The position numbers were made by a program. A stretch of 64,000 nucleotides of DNA from Escherichia coli O157:H7 (GTDB lineage: Bacteria > Pseudomonadota > Gammaproteobacteria > Enterobacterales > Enterobacteriaceae): NCBI RefSeq assembly GCF_013167455.1, contig NZ_CP038328.1; one strand, written 5' to 3'. This document shows, piece by piece, positions 6,001 to 12,000 of the stretch (position 1 is its first letter; every line of letters starts with the position of its first letter).

Positions 6001-9000
6001 GGTTGGGCAAGAACCAGCCTGCGTGAAGACCTGCCCAACGGGCGCGATTCACTTCGGTACGAAAGAGTCGATGAAAACGCTGGCGAGCGAGCGCGTGGCG
6101 GAGCTGAAAACCCGCGGTTACGACAATGCGGGCCTGTACGATCCGGCAGGCGTCGGTGGTACACACGTTATGTACGTGCTGCACCATGCTGACAAGCCAA
6201 ATCTGTATCATGGCTTGCCGGAGAACCCGGAAATCAGCGAAACCGTGAAATTCTGGAAAGGCATCTGGAAACCGCTCGCAGCTGTTGGCTTTGCGGCTAC
6301 CTTCGCAGCCAGTATCTTCCACTACGTGGGTGTCGGTCCGAACCATGCGGATGAGGAAGAGAATAATCTGCACGAAGAGAAAGACGAGGAGCGCAAATGA
6401 AACGACGTGACACCATCGTGCGCTACACCGCGCCGGAACGTATCAACCACTGGATCACCGCCTTCTGCTTCATCCTGGCGGCGGTGAGCGGGCTGGGCTT
6501 TTTGTTCCCGTCCTTCAACTGGTTGATGCAAATCATGGGCACACCGCAGCTGGCGCGAATTCTGCACCCGTTTGTCGGCGTGGTTATGTTTGCCTCGTTC
6601 ATCATCATGTTTTTCCGTTACTGGCATCACAACCTAATCAATCGGGATGATATCTTTTGGGCGAAGAATATTCGTAAGATCGTCGTCAACGAGGAAGTAG
6701 GTGACACCGGGCGTTATAACTTCGGTCAGAAATGCGTTTTCTGGGCGGCGATTATTTTCCTGGTTCTGCTGCTGGTGAGCGGCGTGATTATCTGGCGTCC
6801 TTATTTTGCGCCTGCTTTCTCAATCCCGGTGATCCGATTCGCGTTAATGCTGCATTCATTTGCCGCAGTGGCGTTAATTGTGGTTATCATGGTGCATATC
6901 TACGCCGCCCTTTGGGTGAAAGGCACGATTACCGCCATGGTGGAAGGATGGGTTACCAGCGCTTGGGCGAAGAAACATCACCCGCGCTGGTACCGTGAGG
7001 TCCGCAAGACAACGGAAAAGAAAGCTGAATGAGTATTCGCATAATCCCGCAAGATGAGCTGGGTTCGAGCGAGAAACGTACGGCGGATATGATTCCGCCG
7101 TTATTGTTCCCTCGGCTCAAGAATTTATACAACCGCCGCGCCGAGCGTCTGCGCGAGCTGGCAGAAAATAATCCGCTGGGTGATTACCTGCGCTTTGCTG
7201 CGCTTATCGCCCACGCCCAGGAAGTGGTGCTGTACGACCATCCGCTGGAGATGGATCTGACTGCGCGCATTAAAGAAGCCAGCGCACAAGGCAAGCCCCC
7301 GCTGGATATTCACGTTCTGCCGCGTGATAAGCACTGGCAAAAGCTGCTGATGGCGCTGATTGCTGAGCTGAAACCTGAAATGAGCGGCCCGGCGCTGGCA
7401 GTGATTGAGAATCTGGAGAAGGCATCGACTCAGGAGCTGGAAGATATGGCCAGCGCACTGTTTGCCTCTGATTTCTCGTCCGTCAGCAGCGATAAAGCGC
7501 CGTTTATCTGGGCTGCACTGTCGCTCTACTGGGCGCAGATGGCCAATCTGATCCCCGGCAAAGCCCGCGCTGAATACGGCGAGCAACGTCAATATTGCCC
7601 GGTTTGTGGTTCTATGCCGGTGTCCAGCATGGTGCAAATTGGCACCACTCAGGGGCTACGTTACCTGCACTGCAACCTGTGTGAAACTGAATGGCACGTT
7701 GTGCGCGTAAAATGCAGCAACTGCGAGCAGAGCGGCAAACTGCATTACTGGTCGCTGGATGACGAACAGGCCGCGATTAAAGCCGAAAGCTGCGATGACT
7801 GCGGCACTTACCTGAAAATTCTCTATCAGGAAAAAGAACCGAAAGTTGAAGCCGTGGCAGATGACCTCGCCTCTCTGGTACTGGACGCGCGAATGGAGCA
7901 AGAAGGCTATGCCCGCAGTTCCATCAACCCGTTCCTGTTTCCGGGTGAAGGGGAGTAATCTCTGACGTTTTCCGGGTGGCGCTGGTCGCCCGGATTACAG
8001 CTCATAGGGTGTGACGACACCATCTCTCGTATTCCGCGTTACCACCTCAAGCTATGCCGCCAGTGCCTGTTTTGCCTCAATTTACCCACCCCCACATCAA
8101 TAAGGTTATGGGTATGAGACTGATGATAAGCGTAAGATTGCCTGATGCGCCGCGCTTATTAGGCCTACCAATAAACTGCAATACATTGAATTTATACGAC
8201 TTTGTAGGCCGGGTAAGGCGTTCACGCCGCATCCGGCATGAACAACGCGCACGTTGTCAGCAATCTGATTGATATCATTTTTTCCCATTACCATTCCTCG
8301 CGCAGCTTACGCTGGTATTCGACACCATCTTCCTCACACCCTTGCCATATGCCAAAAGCACTGGTTCTTACTGTTTGCGATTGATTTACCAAGTATTGAT
8401 CTACCGCTTCCCGTAATAGCTCCGTACGAGGAAGATTACGCTGCACCTCAAGATCATCAAGTTGCTTAATCACCTCATTCGATAAATCGAGTATAATTCT
8501 GCCCATATCAATACCTGCCAGAGAGTTCATAAATATTTGACCAATATCATTTGATATCTATGGAGAGAAAAGTACCCTTGTCGAATCTTTAAAGAAAGCT
8601 CATTTACGCATCATTTTTTATTTTTGCGAGGCGTTTTCCAGATATGATGTAACAGTTGCAGTTATTATAAGTTCAAGTAAAACAGCCTTCTATTAATACC
8701 AGAATAAGGGCATCTGTTTTTTATATTCAAGAATGAAAAATTTTTGTCATTCCTTATGCTCCTTACACTGATCATCAACACCAACTACCTCCCCCTTTTG
8801 CCTGCCTCCCTTTGCTTTACGCACCGGGAATTGCTGACGTTCCAGATATTGCTCTACCGCTTCGCGTAAAATTGCAGATCGTGAAACCTTACGCCAGCCC
8901 CGAAGCTTGTTCAGCCGTTTAATTGCCTCTTCTGATAAATGAAGAAAAACCGTATTCATCGCCATTACCACCACCTTACATATATTACTCATTAATGTAT

Positions 9001-12000
9001 GTGCGAAAATTACGCCGAAAAATTAATTAACGAAAGCGGATTTTTGCATGTTGTTTTGTTTTTGCGAGACGTTTTCCAGAAATAATAAGAGCGTTGCAGT
9101 TGTTTCATTTGTTACTCAAAAATGGTTTAGTTATCGCCCAGGATGAGTTATGGGTGCTACGAATATATTATATTCAGGGATATTTATTTTTTCATTGAAT
9201 CTTTATTTGCATAATCTGAATGGTGTACCCGAAAAACGTCAGCATCCTAACAGCACCAGGATTTAAGGTGAAATTAATCTTCCATCACAGACCGGTCAGT
9301 ACTGCCACCAACCGGTCTTTACTTGCTCATCGTTATAATTTTGTTGGTAACAGTTCGGGAAACAAGGAATTCCTTCCGGAACACCCCCGGCATCATCCGA
9401 TAGCATTGACGTCAATCATCGGCTCGACGGTGAGTTTTTTTAATCGCATCATAGGGTGGCAACGTTCAGCACGATACGGGTCATAACAAAACTCCTGAGC
9501 AGCGGCACTATGCCGCTTTCACAGGAGTTCTGAATGCCGGTGCTTTCTGTATGGCTTCGCCATGCCCCTCGCGGCTAAGCGCCTGCACACATCTCTCTTT
9601 GTATTTCATTTTTGCAATGCATTGGCCGAATTCTGATAATCCTAATGAGTTTTACTCTTCAGACTCCCATCCCTACGGTATACGAGTTAGATTCATGAAT
9701 GAAATCGACATTTTTAAAAAACGAATCTTGTAAAACATCCGTGTTGATATTACCTTGCAACCCAACATTAAATTTGTTAGAGAGATGAAGAACTCGAATA
9801 TCAAAAAGGTCTTTTAACATCATTACTTCTTCGGCTGTTAATGAATCGCAACTAAAATATCCCTGTTGATCAAAAAGGTTTTCTATTTCTCCATCATCGG
9901 CGAGGCGTTTTTCAAAGAGTGTTTGCAACATCGAGTTGCCAAGGACAATGGATATCGTGCGATCTTTCGCAGATTTACACCCCATCACAACGGCAACATT
10001 CGTATCCCCCTCAGGAGTTTCATTTATCGCTGTCGCTATAATGGTGGTCAAACACGCAAACGGAACTGTATTTCTTTCGTGATTTAATTTATCTACCAGT
10101 TTATTCCATTTATCAAAAGCCGGGCGATATTTGTTGCGCACAGAAGTATCCGACTGGTTAAACAATTCAGCCATGCGTTTTTTTATCATCTCGATATCCG
10201 GCGAACCAGAAAGACTTTGCGCATAATACGGTCCTGATGATGTTGCATACATTAAAGCCGCGCCCACACCTGTCGCCATGATGGGTGCAGCCACGGTTTT
10301 GGCAAGGGCGACGCTGCGATGGCTATGCGCTTCACAGGCTAAAGGAACATACTCCACTAGCTGCGGTAATTCCTTACATGCCTCCCTCATCATTGCGGTA
10401 TGCTTTACAAACAACGGTTGTTCACTGCCCAAAAAAACTTTCTGCTTAATTGCACTAAGAAAACGTAAATCAAAAATGATTGTTTTTGGTTTATTATTTT
10501 TTGGTACATTACCTATTATCCCGCTAAGAACCTTCCTTGCTGCATGGAGATTTTTTTGCACAGCACATAACACAATTGACTAAGTCTTCTCTACTGCATT
10601 ATTGATTTTAATTTTAAAATCCGCATGATATACGTTGACGGGCAATACAAGTATGTCTGGCGCTACATCTTTGGCTGAGTATTTATTGGTGATCGACGGC
10701 CGTGAATCCACGAGAAAACTTAGCTGCAAATTATGCTCTATATTACCAGCTGTTTTTGTGGTGTGATTAAACATAGAGATGCCACCTCTCATTCTTTCAC
10801 ACATATCCTCAACTTTTTCACTTCGTTCTTGTGGCAATTTGGCTTTAACGTTAATTTGATGATTTTTACCCGTGCATTCCTTAACTACAAGAGGAATGTT
10901 ATCTAAAGTGCCATACAGGCTAATAACATCACCAGGATTTTTATCATGTAAGTAAGTTTGATTAATACTCGAAGCATTCACAAAGAGGTCAATATTATAA
11001 CTGTTTATAACTTCACCTACATCAAATGTGTAGTGCTTACTCTGGAGGCTGCCATCCTTATTTAATTGTATATCAATCAATATATCCCCGGACTTTGTCA
11101 CCATATCTTTGCCATAAACCATTTGCATAGCCATTTCGAGGAGATTTTTATCTAACTGATTGCGGGCGTTGAGTAAGCGACTACCAAATAATTTATATAC
11201 TGTTCCCGTCATTGCCAGCGCTGCGCTTTCTGGTACTTTGCGTTTCCACAGTGAGGTTTCTCTATTTTTAAACAGGTCATATTCATTATTACTCGACAAA
11301 CCATACTTCAGTTCGTTAACACAATGGAACAGTTGTTCCTCACCTTCCATTTTAAGGCGATGTGAAAAATCATTTAATAGCGATTGCTTCGGTGATTCAT
11401 TACTCATTAGTTGTTTTTCTAAATTAACAACAGAATAACTTTCTTGTTTAATGAGATTAATATTGGCAACCATTACAGCCTCCTTCCCACGGTTTAAGAG
11501 CAAACATGCTACATAATTATTTATAACATCCAGAGCAGTAAATGAATGATACTGACAATGATGCCAGCCCATTATCTTTGCATAATGTTTGTTAGCTATA
11601 GATTTTTAAAGTATTTATGAGAAAACTATGGCACCAGAGGGGGTTTTGACTATCAAAAATCGCTCAAACCTGAACTAAGATGATGAATTAAGCATTATCT
11701 GCGATAATTGCTATACAGCTCTACAAATAATATTTAAATGCTCCTGAACAGTGATGTAGCAAGACACGTATGGAGCCAACGAAGAATAAAAATTTATAGA
11801 GTTCTTATTCAATATAACCGAAATAGCCAAGGACTAATATAAATGACCTGAATGAGAGAGGCAGCACCGCCCCTCTCCATCAGCTACTCTTCTTCGTTCC
11901 CGCCCTCTTCATACGGGCCAAATGGCTTCGCGGGCAGAACGATATACGTGCCTTCAAACACTGCACCCGGCGTCTCGTCGCCAAAGATTTCGACCTGCAT

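Follow-up and report, generated by a model that had tools for sequence, protein, structure and literature searches.

The window analysed here, 64,000 nucleotides of Escherichia coli O157:H7 (contig NZ_CP038328.1), carries two adjacent minus-strand genes, yiiF and yiiE, each encoding a protein of 72 residues and each preceded by almost the same short stretch of DNA. A sequence-only reading of the window had described the pair as tandem paralogues with a ribbon-helix-helix (RHH) pattern, resembling orphan antitoxin genes that had been duplicated together with their promoter, and had proposed the conserved upstream element as an autoregulatory operator. Our analysis traces yiiF to the antitoxin gene of a VapBC toxin-antitoxin (TA) module and yiiE to an old duplicate of it, and points to a different role for the element, as a predicted CRP-S site. 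The two genes are as follows.

8288-8506, minus strand: yiiF, an orphan VapB-type RHH antitoxin gene, assigned from its open reading frame (ORF), annotation, PDB matches and synteny; the 72-residue form starts MGRI.
8747-8965, minus strand: yiiE, an Escherichia-specific tandem vapB paralogue of 72 codons, assigned from Pfam, selection, taxonomic range and an AlphaFold (AF2) model.

Both ORFs are present, and their products are 43% identical over 56 residues (BLASTP, E=5e-13). The 42-mers at 8622-8663 and 9060-9101, which do lie 95-160 nt upstream of the 72-residue start codons, agree at 34 of 42 positions, whereas in 200 shuffles of the two 240-nt upstream regions the best 42-mer match was 23.7 on average and 27 at most. 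The first description gave too short a span: the similarity covers ~8557-8672 at a constant offset of 438 bp (75/116 positions identical), is highest over a core (18/20) and declines to ~30-40% in the flanks. Pairwise alignment of the two gene-plus-upstream units extends from ~165 nt upstream through the coding regions to the stop codons. Because the similarity runs on through the coding regions, a whole gene-plus-promoter unit was duplicated, as had been supposed, and because synonymous divergence between yiiF and yiiE is ~0.70 and their coding identity only 58%, the duplication is old. The core is much better kept between the two copies than neutral sequence.

Both proteins have the RHH fold or its signature, in agreement with the residue pattern noted earlier. 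Pfam RHH_1 matches YiiE at 1.6e-11 and YiiF at 1.7e-3, and YiiF matches its own nuclear magnetic resonance structure in the PDB (2K5J, 5e-40). The AlphaFold model of YiiE is confident over residues 1-47 (an extended strand, then helices 12-25 and 29-45) and disordered over residues 48-72; a fold search with this model returned 2K5J and CopG as best matches (rmsd 1.4 A over 41-43 residues), followed by other RHH proteins. YiiF further matches a Klebsiella VapB over its full length (PDB 7BY2 chain A, 3e-28; 7BY3 chain A was also matched), with 68% identity that includes the C-terminal tail, and its 21-residue tail is near-identical to that of the crystallised protein. The YiiE tail can be aligned in frame with the VapB tail, with W, Y, L, R and W replaced, such that the aromatics and the arginine are lost. 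The N-termini read MGRIILDLS in YiiF and MNTVFLHLS in YiiE, and the strand residues predicted to face DNA are R, I/L and D in the former versus T, F and H in the latter.

The origin of yiiF is apparent from the same site in other genera. In Klebsiella pneumoniae and Citrobacter freundii this site holds fabY, a divergent alpha/beta hydrolase gene, a CopG-type gene, a 'VapC family toxin' gene that the CopG-type gene overlaps, and fdhE. The Klebsiella gene adjoining the yiiF orthologue is 7BY2 chain B, 'Ribonuclease VapC', so the Klebsiella vapB-vapC pair is the VapBC complex whose structure has been solved. A locus scan with one genome per species returned 80 loci, 78 of them outside Escherichia, and in 77 of these 78 a vapC (PIN) gene directly follows the yiiF homologue. 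The order fabY ... vapB vapC, with fdhE beyond, is syntenic in ~44 Enterobacteriaceae species, and vapC is intact in more than 40 related species and in E. albertii. In the window, an intact adjacent PIN-domain toxin gene is absent, and only relics are found.

8256-8288, minus strand: vapC 5´ relic, its start codon overlapping the yiiF stop, with a 12-nt deletion; from alignment with the intact E. albertii vapB-vapC.
7995-8051, minus strand: vapC 3´ relic, the last ~20 codons and the stop; from tblastn and DNA alignment with the E. albertii locus.
8100-8270, no strand assigned: a cluster of repetitive extragenic palindromic sequences and bacterial interspersed mosaic elements (REP/BIME) in place of the middle of vapC; from Rfam ES036 and naRNA4 (REP-derived) matches and the alignment gap.

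Residues 102-124 of Klebsiella VapC match the 3´ relic with 61% identity by tblastn (E 6e-6 locally, 1e-3 over the whole window), and this relic is followed by a conserved hairpin that it shares with fdhE. Decay of vapC of a like kind has occurred independently in three other species (loci L029-L031). In E. coli genomes, a 4.1-kb query that includes the REP stretch hit 10 places per genome at the median, a multiplicity we attribute to the REP sequences. Together, these comparisons show that yiiF is the vapB antitoxin gene of an old chromosomal VapBC module of the Enterobacteriaceae, and that in E. coli vapC has been destroyed and its middle replaced by REP sequence. Since vapC survives only as relics, the window holds orphan antitoxin genes and not a TA system, and the suspicion that the pair had no partner toxin was well founded. 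A role for YiiF in anti-addiction against plasmid VapC is unsupported, as this VapBC family is nearly absent from enterobacterial plasmids.

Two corrections to annotation follow from this locus. A 62-residue ORF at 8106-8294 (minus strand) joins the opening codons of the dead vapC to REP sequence and should not be called, as it is no gene. The annotation pipeline (PGAP) calls an 80-residue form of yiiF reaching 8530, and this start (8507-8530, minus strand) is unconserved, being ATT in Yokenella and ATA in Pluralibacter, and lies inside a putative ancestral operator repeat described below. The 72-residue MGRI start is conserved everywhere and is better supported.

YiiE homologues are confined to Escherichia/Shigella. 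Summed over pairs among E. coli lineages and E. fergusonii, the 65 differences counted in codons 1-47 of yiiE are all synonymous (0 nonsynonymous), and its tail, close to neutral, has a ratio of nonsynonymous to synonymous rates (dN/dS) of 0.74; for yiiF, the ratios of 0.22 in the N-terminal domain and 0.44 in the tail reflect a weaker constraint than that on the yiiE N-terminal domain. These patterns show yiiE as an Escherichia-lineage tandem duplicate of vapB and its promoter, in which the RHH domain is under strong purifying selection and the predicted toxin-binding tail has decayed. In E. albertii a single chimeric gene has a promoter and N-terminal half of the yiiE type (95% nucleotide identity) joined to the yiiF C-terminal tail, and is followed by an intact 124-residue PIN gene. 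The simplest history would be a yiiE-vapB-vapC ancestor, recombination between the paralogues in E. albertii, and loss of vapC in E. coli and E. fergusonii. Among other E. coli strains, yiiF has been lost in some, and inserts lie between yiiF and yiiE in others. The locus thus offers a clean natural case of toxin loss, in which one antitoxin copy retains its predicted toxin-binding tail and the other only a very strongly constrained DNA-binding domain.

What, then, is the element shared by the two promoters? BLAST with the core found near-identical copies in Klebsiella, beside rayT and, in the dinG-ybiA spacer, before ybiA, which suggested the motif of a regulon. The CRP-S motif of E. coli, as quoted from Sinha et al. 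(2009) in PMC6728893, is 5'-T4G5C6G7A8-N6-T15T16C17C18A19, a 22-bp CRP-type site with a 6-bp spacer. In enterobacterial CRP-S sites, C6 stands in at least one half-site and G6 in the other, and never T6, which defines Sxy-independent sites (PMC1635313); CRP-S promoters require cyclic AMP (cAMP)-bound CRP together with the co-activator Sxy (TfoX). The CRP-S pattern has just two matches in the 64-kb window (128 kb over both strands), and these are the two cores.

8622-8643, minus strand: predicted CRP-S site of yiiF, plus-strand reading TTT-TGCGA-GGCGTT-TTCCA-GAT, matching 10/10 motif positions.
9060-9081, minus strand: predicted CRP-S site of yiiE, plus-strand reading TTT-TGCGA-GACGTT-TTCCA-GAA, matching 10/10 motif positions.

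Both cores follow the rule for position 6, with C6 in the TGCGA half, G6 in TGGAA on the opposite strand, and no T6. The core is identical at 16/22 positions to each of the validated sxy and ppdD sites (read from MG1655) and has the same orientation, all three being asymmetric 22-bp sites with the TCGCA half gene-proximal; AACGCCTCGCAAA or CCTCGCAAA is common to the core and the validated sites, and the 13-mer AACGCCTCGCAAA is common to ppdD and yiiF. In the yiiE site, the TCGCAAAA half is invariant among all Escherichia yiiE-type promoters examined. A predicted CRP-S site stands at a fixed distance before single-copy vapB in 42 of 45 Enterobacteriaceae species, and the element therefore predates the duplication. 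The core, TTCTGGAAAGCGGCTCGCAAAA, begins 136-138 nt before the MGRI start codon, or 150-153 nt in Cedecea, Franconibacter and Siccibacter. In a set of 28 distinct orthologous sites, positions 4-8 and 15-19 carry 1.4-2.0 bits of information and positions 11-13 the least, 0.6-1.0 bits, and this conservation of half-sites over spacer agrees with what would be expected of a CRP-type site. The element occurs in 5412 of 5426 complete E. coli genomes, with a median of two per genome, and is at least 95% identical in 5162 of the 5412. We rejected a dispersed repeat family, as the E. coli form is found, at the median, twice per genome and at this locus only.

Given the motif match, the likeness to the sxy and ppdD sites and the fixed distance before vapB, the element is most likely a site for activation by CRP and Sxy and not an operator. 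We consider it likely, on the whole, that the locus comprises an orphan VapB gene, yiiF, its duplicate yiiE, and a shared element that is the CRP-S site of an ancestral distal promoter activated by CRP-Sxy. A study by Sinha and colleagues is said to have listed 34 CRP-S units in 2009, and yiiE and yiiF may be among these.

The surroundings of the core were examined in an alignment of the upstream regions of 26 species and the two E. coli copies, and in a near-ungapped alignment of 22 sequences. Four blocks stand at fixed spacing: a LexA box, the core, a CTTT plus TAnnTT block, and a proximal extended -10 within an ATATA repeat. The corresponding features of the window are as follows.

8687-8702, minus strand: decayed LexA box of the ancestral divergent hydrolase promoter, CTGGTATTAATAGAAG versus CTGTATGGATATACAG in other genera, by positional alignment.
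8557-8672, minus strand: duplicated promoter block of yiiF, a putative assignment; besides the CRP-S site it has GCTTTC (~8593-8598) as a weak -35-like hexamer and TACTTT (8569-8574) as the predicted -10.
8995-9110, minus strand: the yiiE copy of the promoter block, likewise a putative assignment, in which TAATTT (9007-9012) is the predicted -10.
8527-8549, minus strand: degenerate remnant of the putative ancestral vapB proximal promoter/operator, in which ancestral TGATATACTGGAGGTATATATGA has become TGATATTGGTCAAATATTTATGA, TATACT having changed to TATTGG.
8978-9002, minus strand: yiiE-type inverted repeat, ACATAyA-N11-TATATGT, adjoining the Shine-Dalgarno sequence; a candidate YiiE operator.

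In other genera the LexA box CTGTATGGATATACAG stands beside the start of the divergent hydrolase gene. The CTTT and TAnnTT blocks are conserved at fixed spacing from the CRP-S site across the 22 sequences, and the TAnnTT block, if it marks a -10, would place the centre of that site at ~-70, in a class I-like position; CRP-S promoters have been reported to act like class I promoters. The proximal block, TGATATACTGGAGGTATATATGA, is an extended -10 (TGnTATACT) inside an ATATA inverted or direct repeat and is near-invariant in the 26 species; in Klebsiella the repeat is TGATATAC-N5-GTATATA. Besides E. coli, a yiiE-type repeat is kept in E. fergusonii and before E. albertii vapB, both times as a perfect 7-bp repeat. 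The differing strand residues of YiiF and YiiE fit the swap of the proximal repeat in yiiE-type promoters, and the inverted repeats by the start codons are probably better operator candidates than the core.

These elements suggest a two-part arrangement. In this model, cAMP-CRP and Sxy would bind the core, ~70 bp upstream of a weak sigma-70 promoter as in a class I arrangement, such that transcription would be turned on when Sxy is present and yiiE and yiiF would belong to the competence (CRP-S) regulon. A second, proximal promoter would overlap the inverted repeat by the start codon, the likely site of autorepression by the RHH protein. Other genera have this repeat intact; in E. coli yiiF it has degenerated, and in yiiE another repeat has taken its place. 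Going further, YiiE could be a domesticated antitoxin, now a transcription factor downstream of Sxy, through which a competence or starvation activator would control an RHH repressor and thereby other genes, possibly those of adjoining variable islets, while YiiF would be a stand-by neutraliser of VapC-type toxins. We regard this last proposal as speculative and rather unlikely.

Several points weigh against CRP-Sxy activation of yiiF and yiiE. A simple sigma-70 consensus scan finds no promoter at the proposed position, and the putative -10 and -35, picked from conservation alone, are weak matches. The open literature that names these genes makes no mention of Sxy and yielded neither expression nor binding data on them under it, and a 2025 review of TA regulation names chpSB, higBA, hokD and hicAB as Sxy-responsive in E. 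coli and not yiiE or yiiF. Because CRP binds CRP-S sites weakly, a sequence match is no proof of occupancy. Finally, yiiE is reported to be bound by H-NS and induced 2.5-fold by SlyA overproduction, and so may be silent under most conditions.

Alternative roles for the core have to be set beside these points. As an operator of YiiE and/or YiiF, the element would have been kept alike because both proteins repress through it; autoregulation is usual among RHH antitoxins, and no other non-coding stretch of the two units is as well conserved. The core, however, is identical to the CRP-S motif, and like sites precede sxy, ppdD and ybiA, none of which encodes an RHH protein. Its asymmetry and its presence as a single copy set it apart from typical RHH operators; it stands 90-135 nt away from the start codons, and was in place before the duplication. 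It has also stayed unchanged although the residues predicted to face DNA differ between YiiF and YiiE, and the separate inverted repeats by the start codons would make a better fit. The operator proposed by the sequence-only reading is accordingly improbable in our estimation. The invariant TGG...CGCA bases would also suit a sigma-54 (-24/-12) promoter, with GG-N10-GC spacing and a parallel in the -12 element of glnAp2, which is also TCGC. On a weight matrix built from 135 chromatin immunoprecipitation sequencing (ChIP-seq) sites, where real sites have a minimum of 6.7 bits and a 5th percentile of 10.0, the two cores nevertheless score only 4.9 and 7.2 bits (ranking 210th and 87th in the window), those of Klebsiella and Citrobacter score 3.3-4.7, and sigma-54 ChIP-seq tables and genomic SELEX (systematic evolution of ligands by exponential enrichment) for RpoN list no site near yiiE or yiiF. 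The matrix scores and the lack of a site in these data largely refute a sigma-54 promoter at the core, to which we give almost no credence.

An ordinary, Sxy-independent CRP site, or a relic without function in E. coli whose two copies gene conversion has kept alike, deserves somewhat more weight than an operator and is still doubtful. CRP alone does bind CRP-S sites, if weakly (PMC1635313), the E. coli copies serve toxin-less genes in an H-NS-bound region, and the chimeras demonstrate that paralogue recombination occurs. Yet neither half-site has the T6 of an ordinary CRP site, and the conservation of the site across genera in single-copy promoters is beyond the reach of gene conversion. Nor does a relic accord with identity of at least 95% in those 5162 E. 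coli genomes, when divergence between the paralogues has reached saturation at synonymous sites and in the non-coding DNA around the site. We thus retain activation by CRP and Sxy as the preferred role of the core.

Further candidates for the core were rejected. A structured RNA leader found no support, with 0 pairs from RNAalifold over the 22 sequences, inconsistent single-sequence folds and no relevant Rfam match, and a small ORF running through the core has no conserved start codon (frames read by eye). The core has no consistent partner hexamer as a sigma-70 -35 or -10 on either strand, by the upstream alignment and a promoter scan. In an informal comparison, FadR, PurR, TyrR, Cra, CytR, SdiA, Fis, IHF and MarA-type sites did not fit both conserved blocks.

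Other sequences near the cores may also be noted. Just upstream of the CRP-S site, both E. coli copies have GTTGCAGTT (8653-8667 and 9091-9105), conserved within Escherichia only; the GTTGCA inside it is a motif bound by the PutA RHH domain, and GTTGCAGTT is also like a CytR octamer. Near the locus, the sequence closest to the sigma-70 consensus is ATGAAA-17-TATAAT (10/12) at 9167-9195 on the minus strand; it falls just beyond the edge of the duplicated block, farther upstream than the yiiE CRP-S site, and could yield a long-leader transcript. A sigma-S SELEX peak falls in the yiiD-yiiE spacer, an estimated ~600 bp from the core. On the sigma-54 matrix, TCGGCGTAATTTTCGCA in the yiiE leader (9002-9018, minus strand) scores 12.7 bits, within the range of real sites; there are ~8 such sequences in the window, and no ChIP-seq peak has been reported at this one. 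Elsewhere, CTGGCGCGAATTCTGCA (6550-6566, plus strand) is a published intragenic sigma-54 site in fdoI (IS47), and TTGGCACAGTTTTCGCT (32960-32976, plus strand) resembles glnAp2.

At two other loci, CRP-S or CRP-S-like sequences were seen in their own right. The MG1655 dinG-ybiA spacer has a perfect CRP-S match, TGCGA-GCCGCT-TTCCA (L101, 4977-4998), centred 33 nt before the annotated ybiA start, and an in-frame ATG 33 nt downstream may be the true start codon. A CRP-S-like 18-mer, GGAAAGCGGCTCGCAAAA, lies ~65 nt from the start of rayT/yafM, which encodes a REP-associated tyrosine transposase, beside REP elements (E. coli O157 NZ_CP044147.1; L096, 1500-1520). A LexA box and a CRP-S site share one divergent intergenic region at three loci, namely sulA-sxy (sulA leftward, box, site, then sxy rightward; L097, ~5950-6015), dinG-ybiA (dinG, box, site, ybiA in the same arrangement; L095, 1443-1525) and, in many Enterobacteriaceae, alpha/beta hydrolase-vapB (hydrolase, box, site, vapB likewise; L008-L051), of which the window retains only the decayed box at 8687-8702. 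This pairing could be a recurring control module for SOS plus competence, or a coincidence.

The wider setting of the pair is an AT-rich interval. The local order is fdoH, fdoI and fdhE on the plus strand, yiiF, yiiE and two AT-rich hypothetical ORFs on the minus strand, and fabY/yiiD, and GC content drops from ~55% to 34-45% across 8100-11700. Over the 4.1 kb compared, the sequence agrees fully (100% identity) with E. coli strain CDC#03-98.

7029-7958, plus strand: fdhE, from the local gene order.
9659-11473, minus strand: two AT-rich hypothetical ORFs, from the local gene order.

Neither of the two ORFs matched a family or defence system in defence-system and NCBIfam searches. The fdhE-fabY interval (9200-11800 in the window) is a hotspot of variable inserts; among other strains one finds a nadS pair, the alpha/beta hydrolase gene, or a DUF6708 pair lying between yiiF and yiiE, and yiiF is missing from some.

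Two long-unexplained 'y' genes of K-12 thereby gain an origin, in descent from VapBC, and a testable input, being placed by prediction in the Sxy/CRP-S regulon. The regulatory part may already have been reported (Sinha et al., 2009). If that part holds, TA-derived genes of a third family would join hicAB and toxTA in the small set connected with the competence regulon. This link between TA systems and competence appears to be old and conserved across the Enterobacteriaceae, not an oddity of E. coli, and bears on why signals of competence or starvation should control TA modules.

Comparison with characterized systems shows how far these likenesses go. With the CopG/Arc/MetJ repressors, YiiE and YiiF share the fold of the N-terminal 45 residues and the RHH_1 family; those are stand-alone repressors with defined operators, whereas the operators of YiiE and YiiF are candidates. 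The K. pneumoniae VapBC pair (PDB 7BY2/7BY3) includes a direct orthologue of yiiF, the vapB gene that occupies the corresponding place in the chromosome; Klebsiella retains the VapC ribonuclease, whereas E. coli has its relics and the extra copy yiiE. The sxy and ppdD sites drive competence genes and are backed by electrophoretic mobility shift assays, quantitative PCR and reporter mutagenesis (PMC1635313, PMC6728893), whereas those of yiiF and yiiE are predicted. In E. coli hicAB, as the passages of PMC6957337 and PMC11951105 on Turnbull and Gerdes (2017) describe it, a distal CRP-S promoter activated by CRP-Sxy, P1, is combined with an antitoxin-repressed promoter, P2, the same two-part layout that we propose for the ancestral vapBC promoter region; our pattern did not find the CRP-S site of hicA P1. 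The hicAB proteins are HicA and HicB instead of PIN and RHH, the toxin gene comes first in hicAB and the antitoxin gene in vapBC, and hicAB has mapped promoters, whereas E. coli vapC is gone and the yiiF and yiiE promoters are predicted. The toxTA operon of Haemophilus influenzae likewise joins a CRP-S promoter to a second, antitoxin-controlled promoter (PMC6957337), with a RelE/ParE-type toxin and in another host family. RNA-seq of crp and sxy mutants has established how toxTA is regulated, and it is to this arrangement that the predicted control of yiiE and yiiF would correspond.

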